Source: an uncultured bacterium (GTDB taxonomy: Bacteria; SAR324; NAC60-12). Taken from it: DNA of 37,329 bases. This document shows, in pieces, positions 2,509-24,789 of the stretch (within the stretch, counting starts at the first letter, position 1; the number at the start of each line of letters is the position of its first letter). Location of the stretch: assembly GCA_964010765.1 (NCBI GenBank), contig CAXGMD010000028.1, positions 1 through 37,329 on the forward strand, written 5' to 3'. The notes beneath the pieces are model-generated. The model had not been told where the DNA came from, made no database searches, and saw only the letters and a list, made by a program, of their open reading frames with translations. The translations under genes were made by a program, and so were the position numbers.

Positions 2509-3486
2509 TCAACCTGGCTTATATTCTCGATTGGCCTCTGGATCTTCCATTGAGAAATTTAGATTCTCTATCTCTGTCCAAAGACTATCTGGTAACTCAA
2601 CATTCGCCCAATCAATTGTCTGCTGAACTCTGGATGGCTTGGTTACACCAGCAACCGTTGAGGTTATTCGGGGATCTCTCGTCGAAAATTGTAAAGCAAG
2701 TGCACCTGGTGGAACTTGGTATTTTGTGCAGATCGCCTCAATGGCCTTAACCGGTTCTAAAGACTCTGCTGTAGCATCTTGATAGGCAATTCTCGGCATT
2801 ACAGAACTACCTTTAGCCAGAACTCCTGAAGCGTATGGCGCTGCATTTAGAATAGCAATGCCTCGTTCATGAGCTTTTGTGAATACCCTGTCTGCTGATT
2901 TATTAATTACATTCCATCGGTTGTGATTCATCAGCGCATCGAAAGGCCAATCCCACAGAAAGGATTCCATCACATCTAGTCTCCCCATCGCCAATCCGAC
3001 GGCCTCAGCCAACCCCTCTTCCTTGATTTTGAACAACTCATCGAGCGCACCACCCTGACAAGTTATTTCCTTCAAGTCGCGTGCGTGCTCAGGATCATGA
3101 AGGTGAAGAATTTGAACTTTTTCTAATCCAAGTCTAGTTAGACTTTCTTCCAAAGATCGCCTGGTACGACTGGCGTCAAAAGTACCACTTTCCATATCAC
3201 GATCTACTTTTGTCGATATTACGAATCCATCTGGCAAACCACCTCTCTCCCTCAAAGCATCACCAATTCTTGCTTCAGAGCGCCCAAATCCATAGTTGTT
3301 GGAAGTATCGAGGAAATTTATTGGACCATCAAAAATAGCATTGAGGGTTTCTCGTGCTCGTTTTTCATCCACCTCATAGCCATAGGTATCCGGCATATTC
3401 CCCAATCCGGAAGTTCCAAAACACAAAGGGGATACCATCAGATCAGTTTTTCCGATTCTTTTCTTTTCTAGGATTTGCTCTGTCAA
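2509..3486 (-). CDS. aldo/keto reductase, D-threo-aldose 1-dehydrogenase-like subfamily
   Basis: AKR motifs GTSGLGN, DTSNNYG (Asp/Tyr), STKV (Lys) and LHLHDPE (His). TTG start with AAGGG upstream. Confidence 0.8.
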   Translation of the reverse strand: MTEQILEKKRIGKTDLMVSPLCFGTSGLGNMPDTYGYEVDEKRARETLNAIFDGPINFLDTSNNYGFGRSEARIGDALRERGGLPDGFVISTKVDRDMESGTFDASRTRRSLEESLTRLGLEKVQILHLHDPEHARDLKEITCQGGALDELFKIKEEGLAEAVGLAMGRLDVMESFLWDWPFDALMNHNRWNVINKSADRVFTKAHERGIAILNAAPYASGVLAKGSSVMPRIAYQDATAESLEPVKAIEAICTKYQVPPGALALQFSTRDPRITSTVAGVTKPSRVQQTIDWANVELPDSLWTEIENLNFSMEDPEANREYKPG

Positions 3487-3865
3487 AATAGTCCCTTATC
3501 AAAATATTTTTAGTGACAGGAACTAGGTCCTTGTTTTGGCAAGTGAGGAACGCTTATTTGCAAGCGTTGATCAGTTAGCAGAGAGTCTTGTGAGAGCTCA
3601 TATCTGCTTAAAGATTGATCACCAGGTAAGTACCTTTGGTTCTTTCTTCCATCATCGAAATCAAAGGTACCGGAGACACTTAACATTATTATGTAATCTT
3701 CTGCCTATTTTATTTTACGTTTGATCGTGTTTCAGTTTCACTAAGAGATTAAGAAGATTTCGGATAGAACTCTCAAAGAAACTAGACCAGAGGAAGTAAT
3801 TGGATTAATCACTTGGCATTTAAAACTGCATAAATTTTCTTCAATTATCTATTGAATTCAAATAA

Positions 3866-4669
3866 CTACGCTGGATGAGGAGGACTGTCATAGCAACCCA
3901 AAACAGACTGATCGAAATCTACAACAGATCCAGTCATCATTCCTGAATCGGTGGAAGCCAAGAAGAGTACTGCACGTGCTACCTCATCCGTTTTGAGCAA
4001 CCGCCCAAAGGGTTGATCTACTTCTGCCTTAGCCAACCAATCTGCCTCAGCAAGATGATATTCTTTTTGGATTCTATCTTCTCCAGGAGTATCCATCCAA
4101 CCAATATTCAGTGCGTTTACTCGAATCTTATTTTTCATCAGGCTAAATGCAGAGTTTTTGGTGACGATGGAAAGCGCGCCTTTTGCAGCGCAATAAGCTG
4201 CGATAAAGGGTTGGCCTCCATGTGCTGACATACTCTGTATATTGACAATTGCTCCCTCAATCTTTTCACGGATCATGATCTTGGCAGCTTCTTGAATTAG
4301 AAAGAAGGGAGCCCTCGTGTTGATTGCAAACATGCGATCAAATAGCTCTTCGGAGGTATCTAGAATGGTTCCCCGATCTGTGATTGCCGCACTATTCACC
4401 AGAATATCAACTTTGCCAAAAGCTTGATCTGCTTTTCGAATCACTTTTCTACAATCTTCCACGCTTGATAAATCTGCCTGCACGAATTCTGTTGGCGTTC
4501 CCTGTCCTTTCAAAATTTCAGCGGACTTCTCACCATTTTGTGCATTCCTTCCACAAATCACCAAACCAGCGGCGTTTTGCTCGGCAAAGAGTTGGGCTAT
4601 TGCTAATCCAAGACCTTGAGTGGAACCAGTAACAACAGCGACTTTTCCATTTAGACTTTGTGAGGCCAT
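3866..4669 (-). CDS. classical short-chain dehydrogenase/reductase (resembles PRK06198 family)
   Basis: Motifs [21 protein letters not shown] and YCAAK. Start moved to ATG 4669 ([10 protein letters not shown]), where the SDR fold begins. Confidence 0.85.
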
Positions 4670-4758
4670 TTTGAATTTCGGGCTGGAGGGAAGACTGCAC
4701 AGGATCAGGGATCCCATGCAGCAAAGGAAAGGGAAAATTAATGACTAAAAACTAGCCA

Positions 4759-5763
4759 TCAACCCCCACCGGAGAGACAGCTCCAAGCAGCCTCAAATGG
4801 GCAAACATCAAGACCTGTGTAGATAGGATCCTCAACAGCTTTGCCGTCAGCTAGGTCCTTGAGAACGTACATAGCTCTGTATCCCATCATGTAAGGCTGT
4901 TGCCCGACCAGACCATGCGTAAGACCATCCTTCAAGATTTCCATCTGCATTGGTAAAGTATCGGCAACAACTACAGCTGTTTGCTTAGTGCGTATTCTCT
5001 CCTGATTTTCTCCTGCCACTCGTCTGAATGCCTTAGGTACAAAGTGAGGGAAGCCACCGGTTGGCACGTAAGCAGTTAGGTCTGGATACTTAATGAAAAT
5101 ATCCGCCATTTGCTGCACTGAAAGTGGGAAATCGTCATTTGTGTAAAGTGGACAACCATCTGGTTCAGTCCAGCCATTTTGACCTGTTAATCGATTGCCA
5201 GGAGGTGTTGTTCCAGACGTACCTGCTAGTGTATCACGGATACCCTGCATACGCTCGTTGTGGTTAGCAGCTGATGCTCCACCAGATTGAATACAAATTG
5301 ATCCACCTTGTGGCTTCAAATTACGTGTCAGCCTTGCCAAGTTGACTCCGATATCATAATTGTTGGTACCAACATAAGCAGTTCGCAACTCCTTATCTTT
5401 GGCCAACAAATCAGAGTCCCAAGTGATCACGTTGATTCCCGCTTCTTTCGCTCGCTTGAGAGCCTTCCCCATTGCTGGTGCATTAGAAGGTGCTACAGCA
5501 ATTCCATCTACCTTCCGCGAAATCAAGTCTTGTACAATTTGGATCTGCTCTTGTTCAGTGTGCTCGCCAGGGCCAATGTACAGACATTCAATACCTTCGA
5601 TTTCACCCTCAGCTTTTTTGCAGCCATCTCGGGCCAGATCAAAAAAGGGATTATTCATCGCCTTAGGTACAAGAGCAAAAGTCAGTTTTGCATGTCCACC
5701 AGCGAAAGCCATCGTGGTTAAGCTGAACGGTAGCAACAAAGCTCCGAGTAAAAACTTTTTCAT
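4759..5763 (-). CDS. sugar/cyclitol ABC transporter periplasmic binding protein (RbsB-like)
   Basis: Signal peptide MKKFLLGALLLPF...AFA; motifs VPKAMNNPFF, TWDSD, YVGTNNY and VGQQPYMMG. AGGAG RBS before ATG 5763. Confidence 0.88.
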   Translation of the reverse strand: MKKFLLGALLLPFSLTTMAFAGGHAKLTFALVPKAMNNPFFDLARDGCKKAEGEIEGIECLYIGPGEHTEQEQIQIVQDLISRKVDGIAVAPSNAPAMGKALKRAKEAGINVITWDSDLLAKDKELRTAYVGTNNYDIGVNLARLTRNLKPQGGSICIQSGGASAANHNERMQGIRDTLAGTSGTTPPGNRLTGQNGWTEPDGCPLYTNDDFPLSVQQMADIFIKYPDLTAYVPTGGFPHFVPKAFRRVAGENQERIRTKQTAVVVADTLPMQMEILKDGLTHGLVGQQPYMMGYRAMYVLKDLADGKAVEDPIYTGLDVCPFEAAWSCLSGGG

Positions 5764-5850
5764 ATAAATTCTCCTGTTATGAAAAAAACTAACCGTCAGT
5801 AAATAATCGCGCACTCTGTTGTGTTCAATAGGCAGACTCCTTAAATTTGG

Positions 5851-6864
5851 TTAACTGGATTGGTGGCTTCGGATTCTTTCCAATGCTACCGCGAAGATGA
5901 TGAACAGGCCAACAAAAGTCCCCTGCCAATAGGGATCCACCCCTGCCATCAACAAACCGTTTCTAATAAGTTCTACTAAAAAAGAACCAATCAATGCCCC
6001 ATAAGCAGAGCCAACTCCTCCCATCAAATCAGCACCTCCAATAACCGCAGAAGCAATAACTCTCAGCTCATAAATCATTCCTAGAGCGTTGGTAACAGAG
6101 CCCATCCAGCCAACAATCATTATAGCTGACATTCCTGCTGTCAGACTGCAGAAAAGATATGCAGACATTTTCACAGCTTTCACAGGAACTCCTGTCATAG
6201 TTGCTGCATTCTCGTTACTACCTATAGCATATAAATGTCGGCCCCAGGCGGTATAATTGAGCATGAATCCTAAAAATATTGTTAAAATCAACATTAAGAC
6301 TAATGAATTAGCAATACCAAAGTAGCTCCCTCCACCAATACTTACAAATAAGTCTTCATCAGGCCCAAACTCATAAAACATTTTATTATTGGAAACTACT
6401 AAAGCCAAACTTCGACAAATACTTAGCATTCCAAGAGTTACAACAAAGGGAGACAAACCGACATAACTAATAAGAAACCCATTAACAAGTCCACAAGCTA
6501 AAGCAGTTAATAATCCGGCTGCAATTCCGGCTTCGACTCCATAGCCACTAGATAAAGTTAGTCCGGTAGCGATCCCTGATAAACCCATAACTGAACCCAC
6601 AGAAAGATCAATACCAGCAGTAATAATTACAGCTGTCATACCAATAGCAATAATACCGATAAATGAAAAATTTAGAGCAACATTATTAAAGTTTTGAGCG
6701 GTAAAAAAAACTTGTTCTCCACGTGAATCTGTCCCAGCCCAAGATAGCACCACACACAGACCAATTGCAGCAATAGTTACCCAAAATGGCTGTGAGCGAT
6801 AGAGCTGTTGCCAAACTGAATGTGTTTGAGAATCAATAGCTTTTGTAAGGCTTGAGTCGGTCAT
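5851..6864 (-). CDS. sugar ABC transporter permease (RbsC/BPD_transp_2)
   Basis: Multiple TM helices; motifs GIDLSVGS, PFVVTLG, GRHLYAIGSNENAA and VIASAVIGG. Confidence 0.9.
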   Translation of the reverse strand: MTDSSLTKAIDSQTHSVWQQLYRSQPFWVTIAAIGLCVVLSWAGTDSRGEQVFFTAQNFNNVALNFSFIGIIAIGMTAVIITAGIDLSVGSVMGLSGIATGLTLSSGYGVEAGIAAGLLTALACGLVNGFLISYVGLSPFVVTLGMLSICRSLALVVSNNKMFYEFGPDEDLFVSIGGGSYFGIANSLVLMLILTIFLGFMLNYTAWGRHLYAIGSNENAATMTGVPVKAVKMSAYLFCSLTAGMSAIMIVGWMGSVTNALGMIYELRVIASAVIGGADLMGGVGSAYGALIGSFLVELIRNGLLMAGVDPYWQGTFVGLFIIFAVALERIRSHQSS

Positions 6865-6880
6865 TAAATTACCTTTTCTG

Positions 6881-7654
6881 TTAAGCGCTTTCTAGGGCAC
6901 CAGTAATTAATCCTGTAACTTCATCCTGAGAGGTTTCTGATATATGCTTATCAGCAACCTTCTCTCCTCTTCGTAACACAACTACCCGATCACAGACCGT
7001 AAATATGTCTGGCATCCTATGACTAATTAGGAGAACCCCAACACCTTGTGACTGAAGACGCTTGATCAATCCTAAGACTTCACTGACCTGGCGGACCGAA
7101 ATTGCAGCTGTGGGTTCATCCATCAATACAAGTTCTGGCGAAGATAGTTGAGTGCGTGCGATCGCAACCGCTTGTCTTTGACCACCAGACATTTGCTTCA
7201 CTAAGTCGCGTGGGCGTGTCTCAGATTTCAGCATTGCGAAAATTTCGCCTGCCTTGGAAAGCATAAACTTGTTGTCTAAAATTCTTAATGGCCCCAACCA
7301 TTTTTTCTTTTCTCTTCCCAAAAAAACATTGTGGGCAGCGGTGAGGTGATCACACAACGCTAAATCCTGATAAACAACCTCAATTCCATGTGTTCTGGCA
7401 TCGACTGGCCGATTGAACTGTTGAGGGTGCCCTTCTAAGTACATCTCACCGCTGGTAGGTTGATAGTTACCGGACAAAATCTTGATCAATGTAGATTTAC
7501 CAGCACCGTTATCTCCCATCAGCCCGACCACCTCACCTGCAAACAGTTGCATGTTAATCCCCTTGAGAGCTTCAATGGCCCCGAAGGATTTGCTGATATT
7601 TCGCAGGTCTAAAAAAACTGACTTTGATTGGTTCTCCTGCGAGCAACTATTCAT
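6881..7654 (-). CDS. sugar ABC transporter ATP-binding protein (single NBD)
   Basis: Walker A GDNGAGKST, signature MSGGQRQ, Walker B VLMDEP and H-loop ISH. ATGA overlap with the iolG stop codon. Confidence 0.92.
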   Translation of the reverse strand: MNSCSQENQSKSVFLDLRNISKSFGAIEALKGINMQLFAGEVVGLMGDNGAGKSTLIKILSGNYQPTSGEMYLEGHPQQFNRPVDARTHGIEVVYQDLALCDHLTAAHNVFLGREKKKWLGPLRILDNKFMLSKAGEIFAMLKSETRPRDLVKQMSGGQRQAVAIARTQLSSPELVLMDEPTAAISVRQVSEVLGLIKRLQSQGVGVLLISHRMPDIFTVCDRVVVLRRGEKVADKHISETSQDEVTGLITGALESA

Positions 7655-8673
7655 GATGCCCTCTCCAGAGGATTTTCATAATTCACTGTAACTACATTTC
7701 CAGTTTCCACGGAGCGGTAAGCTGCATTCGCCAGAATCAACGCACGGCGACCATCCTCAAAAGAAACTTTGGATTCTGAGCCTGCTTCCAGAGTATCCAT
7801 AAAGCTCTCTAGCTGTTTCAGGTAGGCCTGTCGATAACGCTCAATGAAGAAGAATTCGCAAGCGTCTCGCCAATGAGACCCCTTAGCATTGAAACGCTCA
7901 ACGCTTGTAGGTTGCCGGTTTTCAGAGCGTAGCATTCCTTGGCTACCATGTGCTTCCAGGCGTTGGTCATATCCATAGGTTGCATGGCGAGAATTGTTGA
8001 TATGACAGAGCTTTCCGGAGGCAGTTTTCATTAGGATCATCGCGGAATCAATCTCACCAATTTCTTTGGCAACTGTATCGAAGAGATTACTGGTAAATGC
8101 AGTAACCTGCGTGACCTCTTCACCCAAGGCGAAGCGTGCCAGGTCAAAATCATGGATTGTCATGTCTCTCAGCATTCCACCCGCAGCCAGGTAGTAGGCT
8201 TTAGGCGGAGGTTCTGGATCTCGACTGCTAATGATCACTTGCTCTAAGTCTCCAATCTCCCCGTTTCGAACTGCACTGACCAACTGCCCATGTCCGGGGT
8301 CAAATCTGCGATTAAAGCCAATCTGAATCAGACTCTTTGCACTACTGATTTGCTTGCTGCACTCTTCGACCTTGGCAATATCCAAATCGATGGGTTTCTC
8401 GCACAGCACCGCTTTGCCAGACTGAACTGAACGGACGATAAAGTCTGCATGTGTGGGTGTTGATGAGGCCACAAACACGGCGTCCACGTCTGCATCATTA
8501 AAAATTTCATCTAGATCTCGAGCGACCTTGGCACCGGTTTTCGCCCCCACAGCTTCACTGGATGGAGCATGAACATCATAGATCCAATTCAAGCTGCACC
8601 TATCATGAGCTACGATGTTGGCAGCGTGCATTTGGCCAATACGACCAGCGCCAATCAGAGCAAAGCGAATCAT
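7651..8673 (-). CDS. iolG: myo-inositol 2-dehydrogenase
   Basis: Motifs GAGRIG, CEKP, GFNRRFDP, SRDP, DMTIHDFD and YGYDQRLE; lies in the iol cluster; AGGAG RBS. Confidence 0.9.
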   Translation of the reverse strand: MIRFALIGAGRIGQMHAANIVAHDRCSLNWIYDVHAPSSEAVGAKTGAKVARDLDEIFNDADVDAVFVASSTPTHADFIVRSVQSGKAVLCEKPIDLDIAKVEECSKQISSAKSLIQIGFNRRFDPGHGQLVSAVRNGEIGDLEQVIISSRDPEPPPKAYYLAAGGMLRDMTIHDFDLARFALGEEVTQVTAFTSNLFDTVAKEIGEIDSAMILMKTASGKLCHINNSRHATYGYDQRLEAHGSQGMLRSENRQPTSVERFNAKGSHWRDACEFFFIERYRQAYLKQLESFMDTLEAGSESKVSFEDGRRALILANAAYRSVETGNVVTVNYENPLERAS

Positions 8674-8732: not shown

Positions 8733-9839
8733 TTATTGTATTTCTTCAATCAGTACCCGGCGGCCTTCCTGATGACTCAACAATGCTGCATCGAGGATAC
8801 GCTGCACATCGGTCCCCACAGCAAAATCAGGACGGACTGCTTGCCCTGTACGAACTCCCTCGATGAAGTCACCGATCATATGTCCATCCTGCCGAAAAAC
8901 ATCTCGATAGGTATTGTGGACGGTATCCCTGCGGGCCTTGCCCCAAATATCATCCGGAATTGGAAGCTCGTGGGGTAATCCCTCACCAACCTGTGCCCCA
9001 TGAACCCGCTGGATCTTATCCCAATCTGTGACCGAGTAAAGGGTTCCCTCTGAACCATGAAACTCCATGTGGTGGGTTTGACCAAATGGGGAATCTTCAT
9101 AGCAGATCGTCGTCGCATGAATCATCCCTTGAGCGCCATTGGCAAACTCAAGCATGACCATTGCGGTGTCATCGGTATGAGTGAATGGTTTCCCATCTGG
9201 GGTTGTGTCGGGTCGATCAATTGGTGAACCTAGACGACAACTCAATGCACTGACAGAACCCATCATCCATTGAGCTAGGTAGATGAAATGAGAGCCAATG
9301 TCTCCCAAAGCGCCTGATCCCGCCTCTGCAGCGTTTAGACGCCAAGTATACTCTGTTTTTCTGCGGTAGCCTGTGTAGTAGCGAAGATTGCAGTGATAGG
9401 GTTTACCGATATACCCTTGATCAATCAACCGCTTAAGATAGCGAGCCGTCGGCATGAACGAATAAGTGAAAGGTACGAGATTGACTAGCTTGGTTTTCTG
9501 CGCAAGTTTGGTCATCTCAAGCGCTTCCGCATAGTTGAGACCCAGTGGTTTTTCACAAAGAACAGGGATCCCTCTTTCCAATGCAGCTACCGTGAAGGGA
9601 GCATGAGTGTCGTTACCTGTCGAAACGATCAAAGCGTCCAACTCGGCCTGATCCAGCATTTTTTTGAAGTCGACAAAGTGCTGGGAAATTTTCCATTTTT
9701 GCGCAAAAGCCTCAGCCCGCTGAGGATTCCGTCCGCAAGCTGCGACAACTTCTACATGAGGATTTCCCCCCAAAGCAGGCAAGTACATTGCGTCTGCCCA
9801 CCAACTTGTTCCTGCAATTCCGACTCTGATCTTACTCAT
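8733..9839 (-). CDS. Gfo/Idh/MocA family oxidoreductase, substrate unknown
   Basis: Motifs CEKPLG and GSGALGDIGSH (D-x3-H); atypical dinucleotide-binding loop GIAGTSWWA. Confidence 0.82.
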   Translation of the reverse strand: MSKIRVGIAGTSWWADAMYLPALGGNPHVEVVAACGRNPQRAEAFAQKWKISQHFVDFKKMLDQAELDALIVSTGNDTHAPFTVAALERGIPVLCEKPLGLNYAEALEMTKLAQKTKLVNLVPFTYSFMPTARYLKRLIDQGYIGKPYHCNLRYYTGYRRKTEYTWRLNAAEAGSGALGDIGSHFIYLAQWMMGSVSALSCRLGSPIDRPDTTPDGKPFTHTDDTAMVMLEFANGAQGMIHATTICYEDSPFGQTHHMEFHGSEGTLYSVTDWDKIQRVHGAQVGEGLPHELPIPDDIWGKARRDTVHNTYRDVFRQDGHMIGDFIEGVRTGQAVRPDFAVGTDVQRILDAALLSHQEGRRVLIEEIQ

Positions 9840-11637: not shown

Positions 11638-11705
11638 CAAAAAAAACCAATTAGGGGGTTTTGCAAAAATATTTGATTTGAATCTTATGTGAATTTAGTT
11701 CGCCA

Positions 11706-11734
11706 AATATATTTGACTTGTTCTCCAATGGCAA
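11706..11734 (-). promoter_or_regulatory. putative sigma70 promoter of the leftward dehydratase-iolG-ABC operon
   Basis: Minus strand reads TTGCCA (11734-11729), 17-nt spacer, TATATT (11711-11706). Confidence 0.5.
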
Positions 11735-11741: not shown

Positions 11742-11751
11742 CAAAAAAATA

Positions 11752-16212: not shown

Positions 16213-16296
16213 ATTGAAAACTGGTTGAGTCAAGAAGTTTCCTAGAAAAGAATCTTGGCTCAGAGAAACTAAAAATTAATTCTCTAATTTGAAAAA

Positions 16297-16312
16297 TAGA
16301 AATTAATTTCTA
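16297..16312. promoter_or_regulatory. putative IolR operator upstream of the aldolase/2-hydroxyacid dehydrogenase pair
   Basis: Perfect 16-bp palindrome TAGAAATTAATTTCTA (core AGAA-N6-TTCT), next to a candidate TTGCTC-N17-TATTTT promoter (16319-16347). Confidence 0.55.
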
Positions 16313-16413
16313 AAAATCTTGCTCTCTATCAATTCAGATAATATTTTAGTGTCGAACATGCTTCATTTATGTTCGGCCCAGTCTAACTTTCATCAACTAA
16401 ACATTGAGGCCCA

Positions 16414-17205: not shown

Positions 17206-17207
17206 TT

Positions 17208-18188: not shown

Positions 18189-18203
18189 GATACCTGAAGG
18201 GGC

Positions 18204-19139
18204 TCAATTCTGCTCAAAATGATATGGCTTCGAGGGGGAGATTCTTTGCAAAACCTTGGGATCATTTGATCCCAGAAGGTCCTGTGGATTGAGTTCCTCC
18301 TGCGAACCTTCAATCTGGAATCGGCTGGCCATGCTGATAATGAGGCTTTGTGCGAGGCACATCGTAGCAGCTAATGAGTAACTGAATTTGTGGCCTGCAC
18401 CCGGTACGACAAGCGAGCAAGTAGCGTGTTTATGCAGCGGGCTCAGTTGACTATCCGTAAAAGCTAGAATGGGGATTTTCTTGCGGGCTGTTCCTTCCAC
18501 GATGTCTACAACTTCCCGCGCGTAGTAGCGGAAGGAAACTGCAACTAGCAGGGATTTCTCATTCATCAACTCTGCTTCCTCTGTGGCTAGTCCGCCAGAA
18601 CTATCGAGGAGCCGAACATTTTGTCGGAGATACAGTAACAAGTAACGAATGTAGTAGGCTACGGAGAGCGAACGCAATTGCCCCAAAACATAGATTGTGT
18701 CTGCTTCCTCTAATAACGAAACAGCCTTTTCCAGTACTTCAGGAGATATACTGTGCTTGAGGTCATTCAGAGCTGCAATGTCATTACTTACTAAGGATTG
18801 CAAGAATGAGGCGGTCGAATTGCTCGACTCCGCTGAGACCTCGTTACTGAATGATTCCAGGCGTTCTTTTGAACTGGCTGTGGAAATCAGGTGAGATTGA
18901 AAAACACGCTTCATTTCGCTGAAGCCATTGTAGCCCATGTGCTTTGCGAAACGTACCAAGGAGGAAGGTTGAACCCCAGCCTGGTCTGCAATCACTTTGA
19001 CGGATTCAACAGCCATCGCATTTGGGTTCTGAACCATAAAACGTGTAATACGCTGAAAACTTTTCTTCATCTTCGGAAACTGCTCGGTCACCTGCGTGAT
19101 CAACCGTTCATAGGTATCAGGTAGCGGGAGGTTCGTCAT
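18204..19139 (-). CDS. iolR: MurR/RpiR-family transcriptional regulator, probable inositol repressor
   Basis: N-terminal HTH (GVQPSSLVRFAKHMGYNGFSEM) and SIS domain (SFRYYARE, TDSQLSPL); divergent from iolD; AAGGA before ATG 19139. Confidence 0.82.
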   Translation of the reverse strand: MTNLPLPDTYERLITQVTEQFPKMKKSFQRITRFMVQNPNAMAVESVKVIADQAGVQPSSLVRFAKHMGYNGFSEMKRVFQSHLISTASSKERLESFSNEVSAESSNSTASFLQSLVSNDIAALNDLKHSISPEVLEKAVSLLEEADTIYVLGQLRSLSVAYYIRYLLLYLRQNVRLLDSSGGLATEEAELMNEKSLLVAVSFRYYAREVVDIVEGTARKKIPILAFTDSQLSPLHKHATCSLVVPGAGHKFSYSLAATMCLAQSLIISMASRFQIEGSQEELNPQDLLGSNDPKVLQRISPSKPYHFEQN

Positions 19140-19209
19140 CAGCATCCTTTGAAGATTGTTTTCATGTTGCTTTCAAATTTCTAAGCGAAGCAAATGAAAT
19201 TGAAGAAAA

Positions 19210-19225
19210 TTGAATTTTTGTTCAA
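19210..19225. promoter_or_regulatory. putative IolR operator between iolR and iolD
   Basis: TTGAATTTTTGTTCAA (core TGAA-N6-TTCA) overlaps the -35 of a candidate TTGAAT-N18-TAAAAT promoter (19210-19239). Confidence 0.5.
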
Positions 19226-19273
19226 CAATTTATTAAAATAGACTTTTTGAGTCAATTAGCAAGAGGAGTCCTA

Positions 19274-21118
19274 ATGAAAACGATTCGACTAACGATGGCC
19301 CAAGCACTGGTCCGCTATCTTGTCAACCAGCACACCATGATTGATGGCAAGAAGGAGCCCTTGTTTCCAGGGGTTTTTGCAATTTTTGGCCATGGCAATG
19401 TTACCTGTCTGGGTGAGGCTCTGGAATCAGTTCGTGATGTCATGCCCACGTGGCGGGGTCAGAATGAACAATCAATGGGTTTGGCTGCGGTTGCGTTTGC
19501 CAAGGCAAGCCGCCGACGTCAGATCATGGTTGCAACCTCATCAATTGGCCCTGGCTGTACAAATTTTCTGACAGCTGCCGGTACGGCCCACTCGAATCGG
19601 TTACCTGTTCTGTTCCTCTCCGGAGATACCTTCTCTAATCGGCTACCTGATCCAGTCTTGCAGCAAGTTGAACATTTCCAAGATCCAACATTGACTGTCG
19701 CGGATGCCTTCAAGTCTTGTACAAGATTCTGGGATCGAATTACTCATCCAGCACAGTTGATGGTCTCCCTCCCACAAGCAGTGGCGACAATGATGGATCC
19801 GGCTACTTCTGGCCCAGCCTTCATTGCCCTACCCCAGGATATCCAAGCAGTTGCTTACGATTATCCCGAGGTGTTCTTTGAGGAGAAGATTCACCGAAGC
19901 CCACGACCTCGGCCCGATCAGGATAGCATTGCGGAGGCAGCAGCAATTTTGAAGTCAGCCCAAAAACCGATGATTGTTGCTGGCGGAGGGGTATTTTACT
20001 CAGGTGCAGTCGCTACTCTGACCAGTTTTGCAGAAAAACACGGTATCCCAGTGACAGAGACAATCGCTGGTCGATCACAGATGCTGCATGACCATAAACT
20101 GAATGCTGGACCACTCGGTGTGATCGGTTCAAGCTCTGCAAATGCACTTGCTGCAGAGGCCGATGTCGTTCTTGCTGTGGGAACCCGTCTGCAAGATTTC
20201 ACAACGGGTTCCTGGTCTGTCTTTGGTAATGAGTCAATGCAGTTGATTGCGATCAACGCAGCCAGCTTCGACGCTCACAAGCACCGGGCGCTCTCCGTAG
20301 TTGGCGATGCCAAGGTTGGCTTGGAAGATCTAAGCAGTGCGCTGGGTAATTGGGCAGGCAGTCCAGCTTGGATCGAAACGGCACAGGGGCATTATGCAGA
20401 GTGGAACCGGACAGTAGATCAGCATTCTGGACCATCAGATGCTGTTCCTCCAAGCTACGGGCAAGTCGTTGGTGCCATCAACAGAAGCTGTGATAGCACT
20501 GACTTGGCACTGACTGCTGCAGGTGGATTACCAGGCGAGCTTTGCAAAAACTGGAAGACACGCTCAATTGGTACTTTTGACTGTGAGTTTGGCTTTTCTT
20601 GTATGGGATATGAAATCGCAGGTGGTTGGGGGGCCAAAATGGCAGACCCATCCCGAGACGTCATCGTCTTCGTTGGCGATGGATCTTACTTGATGTTGAA
20701 CAGTGACATTTACAGCACTGTGCTGACAGGACACAAGATGATCGTCATCGTCTGTGACAACGGGGGCTTCTCTGTGATCAATCGCTTACAAAATTTCAAG
20801 GGAAGCGCTTCTTTCAACAATCTCTTAAAGGACTGTAAAGTAGAGAACCTTCAAGGGGTTGATTTCGTACAGCACGCCACCAGCATGGGAGCCCTTGGTG
20901 AGCAAGTGGAAAGCATTGCAGAGCTAGAGGCTGCATTTAAACGTGCGAAAGCAGCGGATCGCACTTATGTCATCTGCATCAAAACCCAGCCATCACAATG
21001 GACGCCAGGAGATGCTTGGTGGGATGTCGGAGTCCCAGAAGTGAGTGATCGTGAAGAGGTTCGTCAAGCAAGGTCAGACCATTCCGAGGGCCAGAAACGT
21101 CAACGCTTGGGCGTGTAA
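19274..21118 (+). CDS. iolD: 3D-(3,5/4)-trihydroxycyclohexane-1,2-dione acylhydrolase (ThDP-dependent)
   Basis: Motifs MKTIRLTMAQALV, IFGHGNV, NEQSM, PDPVLQQ, EFGFSCMGYE, GDGSYLM and WWDVGVPEVS; GAGGAG RBS. Confidence 0.95.
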   Translation: MKTIRLTMAQALVRYLVNQHTMIDGKKEPLFPGVFAIFGHGNVTCLGEALESVRDVMPTWRGQNEQSMGLAAVAFAKASRRRQIMVATSSIGPGCTNFLTAAGTAHSNRLPVLFLSGDTFSNRLPDPVLQQVEHFQDPTLTVADAFKSCTRFWDRITHPAQLMVSLPQAVATMMDPATSGPAFIALPQDIQAVAYDYPEVFFEEKIHRSPRPRPDQDSIAEAAAILKSAQKPMIVAGGGVFYSGAVATLTSFAEKHGIPVTETIAGRSQMLHDHKLNAGPLGVIGSSSANALAAEADVVLAVGTRLQDFTTGSWSVFGNESMQLIAINAASFDAHKHRALSVVGDAKVGLEDLSSALGNWAGSPAWIETAQGHYAEWNRTVDQHSGPSDAVPPSYGQVVGAINRSCDSTDLALTAAGGLPGELCKNWKTRSIGTFDCEFGFSCMGYEIAGGWGAKMADPSRDVIVFVGDGSYLMLNSDIYSTVLTGHKMIVIVCDNGGFSVINRLQNFKGSASFNNLLKDCKVENLQGVDFVQHATSMGALGEQVESIAELEAAFKRAKAADRTYVICIKTQPSQWTPGDAWWDVGVPEVSDREEVRQARSDHSEGQKRQRLGV

Positions 21119-21138
21119 AATAGAAAGGAAGAATTTTA

Positions 21139-22266
21139 ATGAAGACACTAGGAATCGGACTGATCGGTTCCGGATTTATGGGGCGTTGCCATGTCAACGC
21201 CTACAATTCGATAGCCAGCATCTTTAAAGTCTCTCAAAAACCAGTCCTGAAGATGCTCGCTGATGCGTCCCCTGAACTAGCCAGTCAACAAGCAAAGGCT
21301 CTACAATTTGAACAGAGCACTGCCGATTGGCAGGAGTTGGTGCAACATCCTGAAGTTGATGTCGTTGATATCACGGCTCCAAACCATTTGCACCATCCAA
21401 TTGCAATCGCTGCGATGAACTTGGGTAAGTCCGTTTACTGTGAGAAGCCACTGGCTTGCACACTTGCTGAAGCCCAAGAGATGGCTAATTTGGCCAGGTC
21501 AAAGCAGATCCCGACACTTGTCGGGTATAACTATCTGCAGAACCCTCTCATGAGAACCGCCCGAGAGATTGTTCAGAGTGGCGAAATCGGGGAACCGATT
21601 GCTTTCAGAGGTGTACATGCAGAAGACTACATGGCTAATCCCCTATCACCATACACCACTCGACTGGATGCTTCTCAGGGAGGAGGGGTACTGTATGACT
21701 TGGGAAGTCATATCATCTCCCTAGCTCGCTACGTTGCAGGACCAATTCAAGAAGTTTTGGGGAATCTGACGACTGTCGTTCCCGAAAGACCTAGTGGAGA
21801 TACGACCCGCCTGGTTCATGTTGATGACCAAACCCACTGCCTGGTGAGATTTGAGAACGGCTGTGTTGGTACACTAGAGGCTAGTTGGATGGCCTGGGGG
21901 CGGAAGATGCACCTTGCTTTTGAGCTGACTTGTACGAAAGGGACGCTTGTCTTCAATCAGGAACAGTTCAATGAGTTGAGACTGTATGATGCCAACCAGA
22001 AAGCGGGTCGGGATGGTTTTAAAACATTACTTTCCGGACCAGACCACCCTCACTATAGTGCTTTCTGCCCTGCACCTGGGCATCAACTTGGCTTCAATGA
22101 ACTCAAGGTGATTGAGCTGCTACAACTGCTACGAGCACTGGAAGGTGGGGATGCCTGCTGGCCTGATTTCACCGAAGCTTTTGAAATTCAAAAAGTGTTG
22201 GAAGCGGTCAAGCTTTCATCAGAAGAGGCAAGGTGGTGTTCCCCACAGTCAATGATTACAAATTGA
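21139..22266 (+). CDS. Gfo/Idh/MocA dehydrogenase resembling scyllo-inositol 2-dehydrogenase / L-glucose dehydrogenase (LgdA type)
   Basis: Motifs GSGFMGRCH, CEKP, GYNY, EDYMA, DLGSH, AFCPAPGHQLGFNELK and WPDF; lies between iolD and iolE. Confidence 0.78.
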   Translation: MKTLGIGLIGSGFMGRCHVNAYNSIASIFKVSQKPVLKMLADASPELASQQAKALQFEQSTADWQELVQHPEVDVVDITAPNHLHHPIAIAAMNLGKSVYCEKPLACTLAEAQEMANLARSKQIPTLVGYNYLQNPLMRTAREIVQSGEIGEPIAFRGVHAEDYMANPLSPYTTRLDASQGGGVLYDLGSHIISLARYVAGPIQEVLGNLTTVVPERPSGDTTRLVHVDDQTHCLVRFENGCVGTLEASWMAWGRKMHLAFELTCTKGTLVFNQEQFNELRLYDANQKAGRDGFKTLLSGPDHPHYSAFCPAPGHQLGFNELKVIELLQLLRALEGGDACWPDFTEAFEIQKVLEAVKLSSEEARWCSPQSMITN

Positions 22267-22305
22267 TTGTCTGATTTCAGAAAACATTCAACTTCAGGAA
22301 AACAT

Positions 22306-23205
22306 ATGAGCGTTCAACTGGCTGTCGCCCCAATTGCTTGGTCCAACAGTGATCTGCCCCAATTAGGGGGAGACACTCCATTGGAAACATGTTTGCGGGA
22401 GAGTCGTGAGGCAGGGTTTACCGGAACAGAAAGTGGCGCTAAGTATCCGATGGATCCTGAAAAACTTGGACCACTGCTCAAACAATTCGATCTCAAGCTT
22501 GCGTCGGGTTGGTTCTCTGGAACCCTACGCGAGTGCAGTGTGGATGAAGAATGGGAAAATCTTCAGGAAATGCTCTACACCTTCAAATCCTTGCAAGCTC
22601 CTGTTTTGGTTTATGCAGAAACCAGTGGCAGTGTTCAAACAAAGCAGCAAATTCCAGTCTCCCAACGTCCTGTCATGCCTGACGAAGAATACCCAGAATA
22701 TGGGCGAAAATTGACAGAAATCGCCGATCGTATGGCAGCGTATGGAGTGCCAATGGTCTATCACCATCACATGGGGACAGTTATTGAGACAGAGCGAGAA
22801 GTCGACCTTTTGATGGCCAACACGGGGCCCAATGTGAATTTATTGATAGACACAGGACACCTTACTTTCGCAGGTGGCAATGTGGAGGCAACCACTCGTC
22901 GTCATGGACATCGGGTGAAACATGTGCACTGCAAAGACATCCGGGCAGATGTCTACAAAAGAGTTCAGGCCGAGGACATGAGCTTCCTAGACGCCGTGCT
23001 GGAGGGAGTCTTCACCGTCCCAGGAGATGGCTCGATAGACTTTCACAACTTTGCGAAGGTACTTTCCGACATCAACTACAGTGGTTGGATCGTAGTCGAA
23101 GCAGAGCAAGATCCAGAAAAAGCCAATCCCCTGATTTACTCAAGGATGGGTCATCAGCACTTGACCGATGCACTTCAAAAAGCAGCCATCGAAATTCAGG
23201 CCTGA
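22306..23205 (+). CDS. iolE: myo-inosose-2 (2-keto-myo-inositol) dehydratase
   Basis: Motifs APIAWSNSDLPQLGG, SGWFSG, YHHHMGT, DTGH, HVHCKD, FTVPGDG and VEAEQDP; AGGA before ATG 22306. Confidence 0.93.
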   Translation: MSVQLAVAPIAWSNSDLPQLGGDTPLETCLRESREAGFTGTESGAKYPMDPEKLGPLLKQFDLKLASGWFSGTLRECSVDEEWENLQEMLYTFKSLQAPVLVYAETSGSVQTKQQIPVSQRPVMPDEEYPEYGRKLTEIADRMAAYGVPMVYHHHMGTVIETEREVDLLMANTGPNVNLLIDTGHLTFAGGNVEATTRRHGHRVKHVHCKDIRADVYKRVQAEDMSFLDAVLEGVFTVPGDGSIDFHNFAKVLSDINYSGWIVVEAEQDPEKANPLIYSRMGHQHLTDALQKAAIEIQA

Positions 23206-23269
23206 GTTAGCATATTTTCTGACAGCCCTGCACTATAGGGTCTTTTCATCATTTTATCCTCACCACCGT

Positions 23270-23315
23270 CTCCCAAGAGCCTGACATTTTGCTGGGCTGT
23301 TGGGGGTTCTTTTTT
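23270..23315 (+). terminator. probable intrinsic terminator after iolE
   Basis: Imperfect GC-rich hairpin CTCCCAAGAGCCTG...TGGGCTGTTGGGGG followed by TTCTTTTTT. Confidence 0.6.
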
Positions 23316-23367
23316 CAAGAATTCCATACATTCTTCCTAGGGTGTTTCCTCACTAAAAGGAGTACTT

Positions 23368-24789
23368 ATGCGCAAAATGTTCATAAATGGAGCTTGGTCT
23401 GAGTCTCCTAAAAGCTCACCCGTGATTCGCTCTTTCAATGGAGAAACAGTGGATCACATTCCAGATGCCACAGATGAGCAAGTAGAACAGACCCTCGAAG
23501 CAGCCCACAAGGCGTCAAAAATATTGGCAAAAATACCAGCCCATGAACGAGCCAGAATCCTTAACAAGGCTGCGGCCTTGATTGATGAGCATGTGGATGA
23601 GTTGGCCAACTTGGTCTCGCTTGAAGTTGGGAAGCCCATCTCAGAAGCCCGAGGTGAAGCAGGACGTGTGGGTGAATTGTTGAGACTCTCTGTGTTTGAA
23701 GGCACTCAAGTGCGTGGGGAGAGTCTTCCTCTAGATGCTCAAGTCGGTGCTGGCAAAGACAAATTGGGTTTCACTATGAGAGTACCCTGTGGAGTCGTGT
23801 TGGCCATCACCCCCTTCAATTACCCATTACTCCTCGTAATGCACAAAATCGGACCTGCCCTAAGTGCAGGTAATGCCGTGATCTTAAAACCAGCTAAGCA
23901 GACCTCACTCTCAGCTTTACGGATGACCGAACTCTTGTACGAAGCAGGCCTTCCAGAAAATGCTTTGCAAACCATCACGGGTTCTGGTTCACGATTGGGA
24001 AAGTTGCTCTGTGCTGACAAGCGAGTGCGTAAAATCAGCTTCACAGGAAGTACTGATGTTGGGGAGCAGATTACCCAAATTGCAGGGGTCAAGAAGCTTT
24101 CCCTAGAGCTTGGTTCAAGCTGTCCCATGATAGTGATGCCTGACGCTGACCTAGACCAAGTAGCGGCTGCGACAGCAACAGGAGGCTTTGTCAATGCTGG
24201 ACAGGTTTGTATTTCACTTCAGAGAGTCGTTGTCCATCAGAAGGTTTATGCTGATTATTTAGACGCAGTCAAAAGTGCAGTGGAGGGAATTTCTGTAGGT
24301 GACCCGATGGAAGAATCTACAAAGCTCAGTGCGATGATCAACGAAGCAGAAGCAGCACGTGTGTCCGATTGGCTCCAGGAAGCAGTTCAAAGTGGAGCTC
24401 GGCTAATTACAGGGGGCGATCGTGAAAAAGCCATTGTTCAACCGACTGTCATTGCTGATGTCAAACCCTGCATGAGACTCGCCACACAAGAACTGTTTGG
24501 CCCCGCAATTGGTGTTGCACCTGTGGAGAGCTTCGACGAGGCAATGGAAATTGCCAATGGTGTGAATTATGGACTTGGAGCCAGTATTTTCACAAAAGAT
24601 GTCAACACCGCCTTACGCTTCGCTCAGCAGATTGAGAGTGGGAATGCCATGATTAACTGGTCCCCACTTTGGAGAGCTGATCTGATGCCCTACGGAGGCT
24701 TCAAGGGTAGCGGCATTGGCAAAGAAGGTCCCCGCTACGCCGTAGAAGAGATGACTGAGTTGAAGACTGTGGCGTTCCACGGCTTGTGA
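23368..24789 (+). CDS. NAD(P)-dependent aldehyde dehydrogenase (lactaldehyde/y4uC/sulfolactaldehyde dehydrogenase-like subfamily)
   Basis: Motifs ITPFNYPLLLVMHK, FTGS, LELGSS (Glu), NAGQVCIS (Cys), ELFGP and MPYGGFKGSGIGKEG; AAGGAG RBS. Confidence 0.9.
   Translation: MRKMFINGAWSESPKSSPVIRSFNGETVDHIPDATDEQVEQTLEAAHKASKILAKIPAHERARILNKAAALIDEHVDELANLVSLEVGKPISEARGEAGRVGELLRLSVFEGTQVRGESLPLDAQVGAGKDKLGFTMRVPCGVVLAITPFNYPLLLVMHKIGPALSAGNAVILKPAKQTSLSALRMTELLYEAGLPENALQTITGSGSRLGKLLCADKRVRKISFTGSTDVGEQITQIAGVKKLSLELGSSCPMIVMPDADLDQVAAATATGGFVNAGQVCISLQRVVVHQKVYADYLDAVKSAVEGISVGDPMEESTKLSAMINEAEAARVSDWLQEAVQSGARLITGGDREKAIVQPTVIADVKPCMRLATQELFGPAIGVAPVESFDEAMEIANGVNYGLGASIFTKDVNTALRFAQQIESGNAMINWSPLWRADLMPYGGFKGSGIGKEGPRYAVEEMTELKTVAFHGL

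Follow-up and report, generated by a model that had tools for sequence, protein, structure and literature searches.

Positions 2,509 to 24,789 of contig CAXGMD010000028.1 (GenBank assembly GCA_964010765.1), from an uncultured bacterium of the SAR324 lineage NAC60-12, hold an island of inositol catabolism (iol) genes. The stretch analysed here, referred to as the window, is this contig in its entirety (C28; 37,329 nucleotides), and it belongs to a 3.86-Mb genome of 266 contigs that is 92% complete. Inositol commonly serves as a carbon source and osmolyte. How bacteria break it down is regarded as settled, a variant in Thermotoga reportedly being the exception. In the window, the canonical iol route is complete, and eight further enzymes are interleaved with its genes or flank them. 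A preliminary description of the DNA had proposed that the extra enzymes form a second catabolic set; we consider below whether they could constitute an oxidative, kinase-free lower branch of inositol catabolism. Genes were identified from a listing of open reading frames (ORFs) and from Pfam and NCBIfam profile scans of 29 window ORFs, with scores written as score > curated cutoff. These scans bore out the gene content and coordinates given in the preliminary description.

On the plus strand, an iolC-DUF2090 fusion occupies 11839–13818 as one 659-aa frame (IolC N-terminal domain, 376 > 300; DUF2090, 211 > 27); its score of 570 against the fusion model NF047869 is slightly below the cutoff of 600. 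It is followed by iolB (13873–14676; NCBIfam, 377 > 205) and by iolA, encoding methylmalonate-semialdehyde dehydrogenase (MMSDH; 14713–16212; TIGR01722, 720 > 448.5). Beyond a 201-nt spacer (16213–16413) lie a class II aldolase of the HpcH/HpaI family (HpcH; 16414–17205; PF03328, 105.9 bits) and a D-2-hydroxyacid dehydrogenase (HADH; 17208–18188; Pfam). An RpiR-family regulator with HTH_6 and SIS domains, probably of the IolR type, is encoded on the minus strand (18204–19145), convergent to HADH and divergent from iolD across a promoter region at 19146–19246. The plus strand continues with iolD (19247–21118; NCBIfam, 852 > 715), a Gfo/Idh/MocA-family dehydrogenase (Gfo3; 21139–22266), iolE (22267–23205; NCBIfam, 390 > 290) and, after 162 nt, an aldehyde dehydrogenase resembling lactaldehyde dehydrogenase and ALDH21 (ALDH; 23368–24789; assigned from Pfam, NCBIfam and solved relatives).

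The minus strand carries a run in the order DHT-Gfo2-IolG-ATPase-permease-binding protein-SDR. Its first gene, as had been claimed, is the IlvD/Edd-family dehydratase (DHT; 9901–11640; NF009559, 958.9 > 882), which diverges from iolC across a promoter region at 11641–11838. The others are a second Gfo/Idh/MocA dehydrogenase (Gfo2; 8733–9839; Pfam), the inositol 2-dehydrogenase IolG (7651–8673; TIGR04380, 396 > 355), the ATPase (6881–7654), permease (5851–6864) and substrate-binding protein (4759–5814) of an ATP-binding cassette (ABC) importer, all three recognised by Pfam, and a short-chain dehydrogenase/reductase of the PRK06198 subfamily (SDR; 3866–4717; NF004847, 427 > 240). An aldo/keto reductase (AKR; 2509–3486, minus strand; PF00248, 144.6 bits) is separated from SDR by 379 nt. 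The iol genes and HpcH are each present in a single copy in the genome. The ATPase consists of one 257-aa nucleotide-binding domain, matching only the first half of the RbsA/AraG-type models of about 500 aa; read along the forward strand, its 3' end and the start of IolG overlap by 4 bases.

The extra enzymes differ in how closely they resemble characterised proteins. DHT covers the L-arabinonate dehydratase equivalog NF009559 over residues 6–578 of 579, and matches among solved structures PDB 8ej0 (627 bits) and the Rhizobium L-arabinonate dehydratase (605 bits). HpcH falls below every NCBIfam equivalog cutoff, those for GarL included (TIGR03239, 138.5 against 406.75; NF007849, 145.1 against 393), and its solved relatives are a 6r62-type ‘hydroxyketoacid aldolase’ (176 bits), HpaI (138 bits) and GarL (127 bits). 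The best solved relative of SDR is the uncharacterised 4nim (382 bits), and aldose 1-dehydrogenases rank next to PRK06198 among named families. AKR is closest to L-galactose dehydrogenases (113 bits), with IolS at 70 bits, and ALDH, at about 320 bits, to ALDH21 and a lactaldehyde dehydrogenase of archaeal origin. HADH is of the phosphoglycerate dehydrogenase/glyoxylate-reductase kind, with scores under the NCBIfam cutoffs, and Gfo2 has distant solved relatives only (4h3v, 111 bits). Gfo3 aligns over residues 2–362 of 375 with 5ya8, an LgdA-type scyllo-inositol dehydrogenase (313 bits). Judged by its sequence, Gfo3 is a scyllo-inositol dehydrogenase homologue and thus a known type of iol accessory, so the earlier view that both additional Gfo/Idh/MocA enzymes are unexplained does not hold for this one.

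The solved relatives of the ABC binding protein are weak (5hqj, 95 bits), and none of the 23 PDB entries matching it is titled as an inositol-binding protein; the imported substrate is predicted to be one or more inositols. The families of Udh, Gci, KdgD and α-ketoglutarate semialdehyde dehydrogenase were not seen among the 29 scanned ORFs, nor did the Pfam scan of the window reveal a PfkB kinase besides IolC or an aldolase of the KDPG/KHG type. Lactonase families were likewise absent from the 29 ORFs, in agreement with the preliminary description; lactonases do exist in relatives, as described below, and the SGL-type lactonases of the same genome are located on contigs C32, C84, C175 and C247. 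On C84 (10381–13267), the lactonase adjoins an IlvD/Edd paralogue that is truncated at the contig end and 45% identical to DHT over 320 residues. This pair suggests a separate oxidative sugar route in the genome.

The genomic context of DHT was surveyed in 41 related genomes and then in a scan of one genome per species (80 loci, homologues at 50–73% identity). Orthologues at 74% identity or above were found in 12 of the 41 genomes, a count that includes the window's own genome and two partial matches. The order Gfo2-DHT followed by iolC is kept in all five same-genus loci. Three further genomes (G001, G019, and G024) carry a DHT orthologue (78–82%) among iolC, iolB, iolD, and iolE, in 3/3 loci with enough context; across these and the same-genus loci, identity ranges from 75% to 98%. 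Gfo2 adjoins DHT in the five same-genus loci as well as in G001 (68%), G024 (48%), and G021 (53%), the G021 contig having the DHT-Gfo2 pair and no iol genes. An aldehyde dehydrogenase resembling succinate-semialdehyde dehydrogenase (SSADH) adjoins DHT in G001 and G024. Among 11 loci of these genomes with DHT homologues at 50–60% identity, none has iol genes. In the species-level scan, four of the 80 loci are iol-linked: L074, L079 (Acidocella aquatica), L081 (a metagenome-assembled genome, MAG) and L094 (Plasticicumulans lactativorans). An HpcH homologue lies nearby in 25 of the 80, mostly at 27–35% identity and often with HADH or TRAP transporter genes.

In a DHT tree of 90 rows, the iol-linked sequences fall into two starred clades. 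Clade A comprises the window's family and L074, with five of its six rows iol-linked, while clade B consists of four rows (L094, L083, L079, and L081). Clade-B loci have the order SGL lactonase-Gfo-HpcH-DHT-IolG', in which the Gfo is of the OxRdtase_C type and HpcH is 56–63% identical to that of the window; in L079, this set directly follows iolD-iolE-iolA. The best solved relative of the clade-B Gfo is PmdC (129 bits), which presumably acts on an aldehyde-acid in its cyclic hemiacetal form and oxidises it to a lactone, and no structure of an L-arabinose or galactose 1-dehydrogenase was matched. PmdC is described, in the accessible part of the source, as the dehydrogenase of 4-carboxy-2-hydroxymuconate semialdehyde (PMC11489326). 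Relatives thus hold lactonases of two kinds near DHT: SGL in L079, L081, and L094, and a metallo-β-lactamase (MBL)-fold hydrolase in L074 and L208. Two genomes (G042 and G158) have a clade-A-like DHT (73–74%) divergent from IolD with an MBL-fold hydrolase downstream, and encode SDR (65–69%)-IolE-IolG elsewhere; in G158 (L189), the latter genes stand beside orthologues of the window's ABC importer (binding protein 64%, ATPase 65%).

HpcH loci were collected from the related genomes, from the genomes behind L074–L094 and from a metagenome scan (80 loci). Orthologues at 93–96% identity occupy the same position in six genomes of the window's genus, and in G021 HpcH (73%) is flanked by IolG and IolD. 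An additional copy of IolD, with an additional HpcH some 3 kb away, is present in each of Acidocella aquatica, A. aminolytica, and the L081 MAG (L156–L158). These loci share an arrangement, here called type X, that reads (ABC)-SDR-IolE-IolD-RpiR / (ALDH)-HpcH-HADH-IolG-Gfo3, with identities to the window of 62–64% for SDR, 61–63% for IolD, 46–50% for HpcH, and 45–46% for HADH. The RpiR orthologues (44–45%) are in the same divergent position, an SSADH-like ALDH is present in two of the three loci, and none contains iolB, iolC, or iolA. SDR orthologues (62–69%) adjoin IolE in all three as well as in L188, L189, and L228.

The metagenome scan extends these associations. An iol core gene accompanies HpcH in 27 of the 80 loci. 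Eleven loci belong to the window's genus, their architecture conserved as far as each contig reaches, and three G021-like loci read IolG-HpcH-IolD-Gfo3-IolE, with SDR (69%) next in L228. In a low-GC lineage, at least 14 of the 80 loci read IolD / ALDH-HpcH-HADH / IolE, the ALDH being SSADH-like (485 bits) and the HpcH-HADH pair, which recurs here and in type X, showing 35–38% identity to that of the window. One low-GC locus (L273) additionally encodes a partial dehydratase of the enolase superfamily, IolG, and an ABC importer, and its 16 kb contain neither iolB nor iolC. In a 44-row tree, a single group of 17 rows (support 88/90) unites all iol-linked HpcHs with the non-iol sequences of G013 and G022. 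It is separate from the 21 HpcHs found with non-iol DHTs, which come from Burkholderiales and other lineages. The 15 rows counted as iol-associated were assigned by reading the loci, labels based on ±8 kb being limited because most loci are short. The ALDHs found inside iol clusters of G001 and G024, type X, and the low-GC lineage are all SSADH-like (460–485 bits), and those of G001/G024 and type X are 45–50% identical to one another.

Taken together, these contexts answer a test that the preliminary description had set itself, namely whether linkage of the dehydratase, aldolase, and SDR to iol genes is repeated in other genomes: it is. The proposal that all eight extra enzymes form one set fared less well. 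Several of them recur beside iol genes, but Gfo3 is a known accessory and AKR is unlinked outside the genus: its synteny is confined to the window's genus, no orthologue was seen in the iol loci of other lineages, and it is probably unrelated to the branch discussed here. The window IolD is closer to type-X IolD (61–63%) than to that of canonical clusters (44–52%), and the island therefore appears to be a fusion of two cluster types. SDR, the ABC importer, IolG, HpcH-HADH, RpiR, IolD-Gfo3-IolE, and ALDH appear to represent the type-X part; iolC-iolB-iolA and DHT-Gfo2 appear to represent a canonical cluster of the kind seen in G001.

Some bacteria carry the upper inositol route without the enzymes that normally complete it. 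Five genomes from this comparison were tested for the lower steps. IolB and DUF2090 were found in three (G041, G043, and G044), with IolC scoring over the cutoff of 300 in G041 and 293–294 in G043 and G044. Neither IolB nor DUF2090 was found in G042 or in G045, an A. aminolytica isolate of about 4.0 Mb that has type X, and the best IolC scores there were 92 and 111, respectively. The idea that HpcH and DHT replace IolC and IolJ wherever they occur was rejected for A. aquatica, the L081 MAG, and Plasticicumulans, which have IolB and IolC-DUF2090.

A wider sample of 121 genomes, from the order of G045, places these cases in context. IolD was detected in 44 genomes, IolB in 28, and both in 27, leaving 17 of 44 IolD-positive genomes without IolB. 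DUF2090 did not turn up in any of five more genomes without IolB, among them two with contigs of 5.5 and 3.7 Mb; it is therefore missing in all seven tested, and a search for IolC in two of them found none. HpcH of the window type (E ≤ 1e-60) is present in 17/17 IolD-positive, IolB-negative genomes, in 0/27 with both, and in 27/77 without IolD. For close DHT (E ≤ 1e-200), the corresponding counts are 11/17, 0/27, and 24/77. Both cross-tabulations were tallied by hand and serve as a lead, not as a statistical test. Twelve loci were fetched from this sample, 11 of them from IolB-lacking genomes, and six show a compact cluster, IolE-IolD / IolG-SDR (SDR 47–50%). These clusters (L198–L202 and L206) belong to G051, G090, G110, G131, G149, and G079, in which IolB was not found; DUF2090 was likewise not found in the three of them that were tested (G051, G090, and G131). 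In L200, the only annotated one, an inositol monophosphatase comes after the cluster, together with an ABC importer of the SBP_bac_1 type. The accessory genes of the island are the best candidates to fill the lower-route gap in IolB-lacking genomes. A published survey of iol clusters, going by the accessible part of its text, required three members of the set iolB, iolC, iolD, and iolE, and would hence have been blind to clusters lacking IolB and IolC (PMC9430895).

Two features of aldolase context bear on the chemistry. The first concerns its product. In four IolD-negative genomes of the 121-genome sample, HpcH (46–47%) lies directly beside DHT (58–60%), and in three of the four these genes form DHT-HpcH-MMSDH operons. 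The operon MMSDH is 59–61% identical to the window IolA (TIGR01722, 710 > 448.5), and the HpcHs of these genomes are sister to the type-X iol HpcHs (support 100/100). MMSDH itself is present in all five genomes in which it was sought. If the aldolase product is passed to a CoA-acylating MMSDH, malonate semialdehyde is expected. It follows that the aldolase substrate would be 4-hydroxy-2-oxoadipate, and that of the dehydratase 2,3,4-trihydroxyadipate, a 5-deoxy-hexarate. 5-Deoxy-D-glucarate keeps the C2/C3 configuration of D-gluconate, which is accepted by sugar-acid dehydratases of this family.

The operons are flanked by genes for an OprB porin, a major facilitator superfamily (MFS) carrier, and a three-subunit membrane dehydrogenase. 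In L210 (G116), L212 (G054), and L213 (G099), DHT, HpcH, MMSDH, and OprB are read in one direction, and a LysR regulator, the MFS carrier, and a 399-aa protein without a family match in the other. Beyond the last of these lies the three-subunit membrane flavoprotein/cytochrome c dehydrogenase, annotated in L210 and L212. This layout suggests periplasmic oxidation of a sugar or polyol, feeding an acid into the dehydratase-aldolase-MMSDH trio.

The second feature concerns the class of substrate. The closest non-iol relatives of HpcH (60–65%) occupy the GarL position of glucarate/galactarate operons. The order in L238 is GudD (857 > 828.7), HpcH (65%), GarR (473 > 451), and GarD (902 > 731), and L229 has GudD (846 > 828.7) beside HpcH (63%). 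L257 and L276 have a TRAP binding protein, an NAD epimerase-family dehydrogenase, taken here as Udh-like, and GntR next to HpcH. The position of these relatives therefore argues that the subfamily cleaves 2-keto-3-deoxy-aldarates. The product clue from the MMSDH operons and the substrate-class clue from the GarL position are independent, and they agree.

Regulatory sequences link several of the units within the window. The spacer upstream of HpcH contains a perfect palindrome, TAGAAATTAATTTCTA, of the form GAA-N6-TTC (site at 16299). Only three intergenic sites of this form occur in the window's 2878 nt of spacers, the others being in the DHT/iolC (11759) and RpiR/iolD (19212) promoter regions. 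Shuffling the three regions yielded a site in each in 0 of 5000 trials. The form, though not its sequence, is kept up to about 150 nt upstream of HpcH in six other loci of the genus (L109–L114). It was found neither upstream of ALDH nor in the AKR/SDR spacer. Outside the genus, it occurs in the matching regions of L156, L228, and L079, and it was counted as support within the genus only. The stricter GGAA-N6-TTCC, which we take to be the Sinorhizobium IolR site, has one match in the window; it lies inside a coding region and is at chance level. A promoter-like match at 16289–16317 overlaps the palindrome upstream of HpcH, and a hairpin at 24797–24818 lies 3' of the ALDH stop codon; overall, the promoter scan was at chance level, as was the terminator scan, whose counts equal those of shuffles.

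Related sequences are also present in environmental RNA data. Seventeen salt-marsh RNA libraries contain 67–69% of the sampled words of 14800–24790. Contigs aligned from four libraries are 95–99% alike to the window; such contigs show neither strand nor single transcripts. They bridge iolA and HpcH in all four runs, extending into HADH in two, and join IolE to ALDH in three. Depth along the window varies more than 30-fold in X1 and X16, unlike plain DNA carry-over. Cover is missing at 6402–7068 and 7736–8402 in X1 and at 30687–31708 in X2, although such holes in contig data prove nothing. The contigs offer weak support for expression and none for induction.

Based on these findings, we propose that DHT, HpcH, and at least one of ALDH, SDR, and Gfo2 form an oxidative, kinase-free branch leading from 5-deoxy-D-glucuronate to pyruvate and malonate semialdehyde, a reading that we consider to stand at about an even chance of being correct. 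IolG or Gfo3, IolE, and IolD would make 5-deoxy-D-glucuronate, a uronic acid, the aldehyde of which would be oxidised to 5-deoxy-glucarate. This oxidation could be carried out directly by an ALDH, SSADH-like in relatives and of a different kind in the window, or could proceed via a lactone formed by SDR or a Gfo-type dehydrogenase and opened by a lactonase, a role that SGL or MBL-fold proteins could fill in relatives but for which the window offers no candidate. DHT would then remove water across C2–C3, giving 4-hydroxy-2-oxoadipate, which the GarL-like HpcH would cleave to pyruvate and malonate semialdehyde. IolA would convert the latter to acetyl-CoA. The branch would bypass IolB and IolC-DUF2090 and would therefore cost no ATP.

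The enzymes filling these steps may differ between lineages. In G001/G024, type X, and the low-GC lineage, the oxidant might be the ALDH resembling SSADH; in clade B, it might be the PmdC-like Gfo with the SGL lactonase, and in the window SDR, Gfo2, or ALDH. Dehydration might fall to DHT and, in the low-GC lineage, to an enzyme of the enolase type. The partner of HpcH is DHT in clade B and the MMSDH operons and HADH in type X, a switch that fits two ways of reaching a 2-keto acid, namely dehydration or oxidation of the 2-hydroxyl. Thus, HADH could act as an alternative to dehydration, with hydroxypyruvate and malonate semialdehyde as the products, or it could reduce a product. Within the window, SDR is a candidate oxidiser of the 5-deoxy-glucuronate hemiacetal, and ALDH a weakly supported candidate for the free aldehyde. 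ALDH had been placed at the exit of the pathway in the preliminary description. Since the predicted aldehyde product, malonate semialdehyde, would be consumed by IolA, an ALDH would more likely oxidise the uronate aldehyde at entry.

With the canonical myo-inositol pathway, every step of which is present in the window over a curated cutoff, the proposed branch has in common the first three steps and, at the end, the IolA reaction. It differs in the middle, where isomerisation, phosphorylation, and cleavage to dihydroxyacetone phosphate (IolB, IolC, and IolJ/DUF2090) are replaced by oxidation, dehydration, and cleavage to pyruvate. DUF2090 has been proposed to be an IolJ-type aldolase, according to the accessible part of the report (PMC9007349). 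The best reading of the co-occurrence of both routes in the window is the fusion of two cluster types, and the branch is best seen as a variant of known uronate/aldarate-type logic.

The E. coli-type glucarate/galactarate pathway follows that logic, converting an aldarate to a 2-keto-3-deoxy-aldarate, which E. coli cleaves with GarL to pyruvate and a C3 semialdehyde, and the window HpcH is 63–65% identical to aldolases in the GarL position. The window dehydratase, however, belongs to IlvD/Edd and not to the enolase or GarD type. Further, the predicted substrate lacks the 5-hydroxyl and would yield malonate instead of tartronate semialdehyde, to be consumed by IolA/MMSDH rather than GarR. In the oxidative uronate pathway, as outlined in the accessible part of one account, a uronate is oxidised at C1 and passes through the lactone to become an aldaric acid, the substrate of a subsequent dehydration (PMC6353982). 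The dehydrogenase and SGL lactonase of the clade-B clusters resemble this arrangement, but the branch would end in aldol cleavage instead of a decarboxylating dehydration, and its substrate, 5-deoxy-glucuronate, would be made inside the cell from inositol.

If the branch exists, it would add two new intermediates, together with new specificities for an IlvD/Edd dehydratase and a GarL-like aldolase, and would correct the automatic labels ‘L-arabinonate dehydratase’ and ‘4-hydroxy-2-oxoheptanedioate aldolase’. It would also alter how inositol use is predicted from genomes and metagenomes. The broader claim is that a fully non-phosphorylative inositol pathway exists, serving as the sole lower route in many bacteria with IolG, IolE, and IolD and without IolB, IolC, or IolJ. 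Where both routes are present, as in the window, it would widen the diet to inositol stereoisomers that give ring-opened products unsuited to IolB and IolC. This claim is tentative, and we think it possible but doubtful.

Several observations weigh against the proposed branch. We infer every one of its chemical steps, and 5-deoxyglucarate, 4-hydroxy-2-oxohexanedioate, and 2-deoxyglucarate appear in no literature match listed, so these intermediates are hypothetical. The complete canonical route would make a second one redundant in the window, and the model leaves HADH and AKR without a step. DHT exceeds the L-arabinonate dehydratase cutoff, its closest characterised relatives being aldonate dehydratases. 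Neither gene is exclusive to inositol clusters: 76 of the 80 species-level DHT loci lack iol linkage, 53 of the 80 metagenome HpcH loci lack an iol core gene (at least nine of these are 13 kb or longer), HpcH at 66–68% identity has non-iol surroundings in G013 and G022, and the HpcH-DHT pairs of four IolD-negative genomes show the same for the module. Conversely, HpcH was not found in G001 (94% complete) or G024 (87% complete) despite their iol-linked DHT. The window ALDH is only 29–33% identical to the recurrent SSADH-like enzymes and is not of that type, and no orthologue of the latter was found in the window's genome. The HpcH split in the 121-genome sample is confounded by kinship and by copies outside the iol clade; one of these, in G158, adjoins a GarD-type dehydratase. 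The matching regions of L157, L158, L124, L013, and low-GC L270 and L273 lack GAA-N6-TTC. Lastly, one RNA contig crosses the convergent HADH/RpiR junction, and some DNA carry-over is possible.

The literature searched, which left most subscription journals and supplements outside its scope, contained no description of a branch from 5-deoxy-glucuronate, and HpcH is mentioned in none of the listed matches for iolD and iolE.

The extra enzymes may instead represent an ordinary non-phosphorylative aldose or aldonate route, of the Dahms or De Ley-Doudoroff type, that merely shares its locus and regulator with the iol genes. L-arabinose, D-galactose/D-fucose, D-glucose, or D-xylose would be oxidised by Gfo, AKR, or SDR and dehydrated by DHT, after which HpcH would release pyruvate and glycolaldehyde or glyceraldehyde, the aldehyde being oxidised by ALDH. 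Dahms, Weimberg, and De Ley-Doudoroff routes use the same dehydratase family and the same order of dehydrogenase, (lactonase), dehydratase, and aldolase, an order to which clade B conforms. The affinity of DHT for L-arabinonate dehydratases, with the Rhizobium enzyme as the nearest characterised structure, points the same way, as do the relationships of AKR to L-galactose dehydrogenases and of SDR to aldose 1-dehydrogenases, and the frequency of DHT and HpcH relatives away from iol genes. Candidate dehydrogenases and a dehydratase are present in the window; no lactonase was found among its scanned ORFs. The preliminary description had assumed an aldolase of the Dahms/Entner-Doudoroff kind, whereas the nearest context relatives of HpcH are in aldarate rather than aldonate operons. 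Both this aldolase subfamily and its MMSDH partner suggest a dicarboxylic substrate, the DHT-HpcH-MMSDH operons indicating malonate semialdehyde and not glycolaldehyde or glyceraldehyde, and the clade-B Gfo best matches PmdC, not an L-arabinose or galactose 1-dehydrogenase. An aldose route also leaves unexplained why, in at least five lineages, these genes are embedded in iol clusters, and why type X occurs in a genome in which no IolB, IolC, or DUF2090 was detected. On balance, we regard it as unlikely.

A route for aldarates or uronates co-located with the iol genes only would start from D-glucarate or galactarate, or from a uronate that is converted to one of these by oxidation. DHT would then be an aldarate dehydratase, HpcH a GarL yielding pyruvate and tartronate semialdehyde, and HADH a reductase of hydroxypyruvate or tartronate semialdehyde. 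The operon positions of the HpcH relatives, in GudD-HpcH-GarR-GarD order or beside a TRAP binding protein and a Udh-like candidate, favour such a route, as do the G158 HpcH next to a GarD-type dehydratase, the glyoxylate/hydroxypyruvate-reductase character of HADH, and the two TAXI-type TRAP systems downstream in the window. However, none of GudD, GarD, GarR, and Udh was seen among the scanned window ORFs, and the recurrent partner is MMSDH/IolA and not GarR. We know of no IlvD/Edd enzyme that acts as an aldarate dehydratase, and the linkage to IolD and IolE in genomes lacking IolB and IolC would be left unexplained. This route is distinctly improbable.

Another reading retains the oxidative branch in outline but assigns it solely to a different cyclitol, either an inositol isomer other than myo or an inositol methylated at O or C, whose ring-opened product would differ from 5-deoxy-D-glucuronate and be beyond the reach of IolB and IolC. 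HpcH-family aldolases are often loose about C4 stereochemistry, the window encodes three Gfo/Idh/MocA dehydrogenases including the LgdA-type homologue, and type-X IolD and IolE are distinct from those of canonical clusters (61–63% against 44–52% identity to the window). Related iol clusters also contain candidate demethylating oxygenases. These comprise PhyH-type Fe/2-oxoglutarate dioxygenases of 386 aa in G019 (L014:4622–5782) and G024 (L015:3860–5020), and a fatty-acid-desaturase-type di-iron enzyme between HpcH and IolD in G021 (L124:2612–3577). In these three related genera, the oxygenases might demethylate O-methyl inositols. No oxygenase of this sort was seen among the scanned window ORFs, however, and the single IolD and single IolE of the window both score as bona fide equivalogs. 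A dedicated cyclitol branch therefore seems quite unlikely. Among the substrates suggested in the preliminary description, a ring-opened inositol acid fits best, and no support was found for a rare L-sugar or a methylated inositol as substrate of these enzymes.

It is very improbable that the extras share no pathway at all and are unrelated genes gathered in a carbohydrate island, each with its own substrate. The chance-level promoter and terminator scans and the lack of comparative support for AKR and the window ALDH would suit such an assemblage, but the HpcH-HADH, SDR-IolE, DHT-Gfo2, and HpcH-DHT adjacencies recur across lineages, and a palindrome of shared form lies upstream of three units. 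A sulfoquinovose Entner-Doudoroff route, suggested by the joint presence of SDR, IlvD/Edd, HpcH, and ALDH, found no backing, as no glycosidase or lactonase was present among the scanned window ORFs, although no dedicated search was made. Least probable of all, to the point of being hardly credible, is an L-glucose/L-gluconate-type route as in Paracoccus 43P, in which Gfo3 would act as the dehydrogenase of an L-hexose, epimerisation of the aldonate via a 5-keto acid would fall to SDR and AKR, DHT would be a D-idonate dehydratase, and a non-phosphorylative aldolase would end the sequence: Gfo3 does match LgdA structures at 313 bits, and in 43P a scyllo-inositol dehydrogenase encoded in the inositol gene cluster (lgdA) feeds a sugar-acid route with the D-idonate dehydratase LgnE (PMC12632266, PMC5969746), but, as far as the accessible parts of these reports go, 43P phosphorylates 2-keto-3-deoxygalactonate (KDGal) and uses a KDPGal aldolase, neither the kinase nor the aldolase being seen among the scanned window ORFs, its lgn genes form a separate operon (PMC5969746), L-glucose is presumably absent from nature (PMC12632266), and the MMSDH linkage would have no explanation.

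Some further observations concern the surroundings of these genes. At 4649–4736, contigs of three of the four RNA runs (X1, X2, and X16) skip 86 bases over the start of SDR and the spacer between SDR and the binding-protein gene, so a related population probably carries a different or shorter spacer. Downstream of the island, 27028–34937 encodes the two TAXI-TRAP systems and a CsiD-family dioxygenase, each TRAP system consisting of a fused DctQM-like membrane protein and an NMT1_3 binding protein. The first of the two binding-protein genes (29665–30175) has the highest contig depth of the window in X1 and X16 (76–90), contig depth being a poor measure. Between the island and these systems, two EamA genes (24933–26778) follow directly after ALDH. 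In the related genome G001, an EamA transporter and a TauE/SafE-type exporter (L013:4139–5866) lie about 2–4 kb past the IolG end of the DHT-iol cluster.

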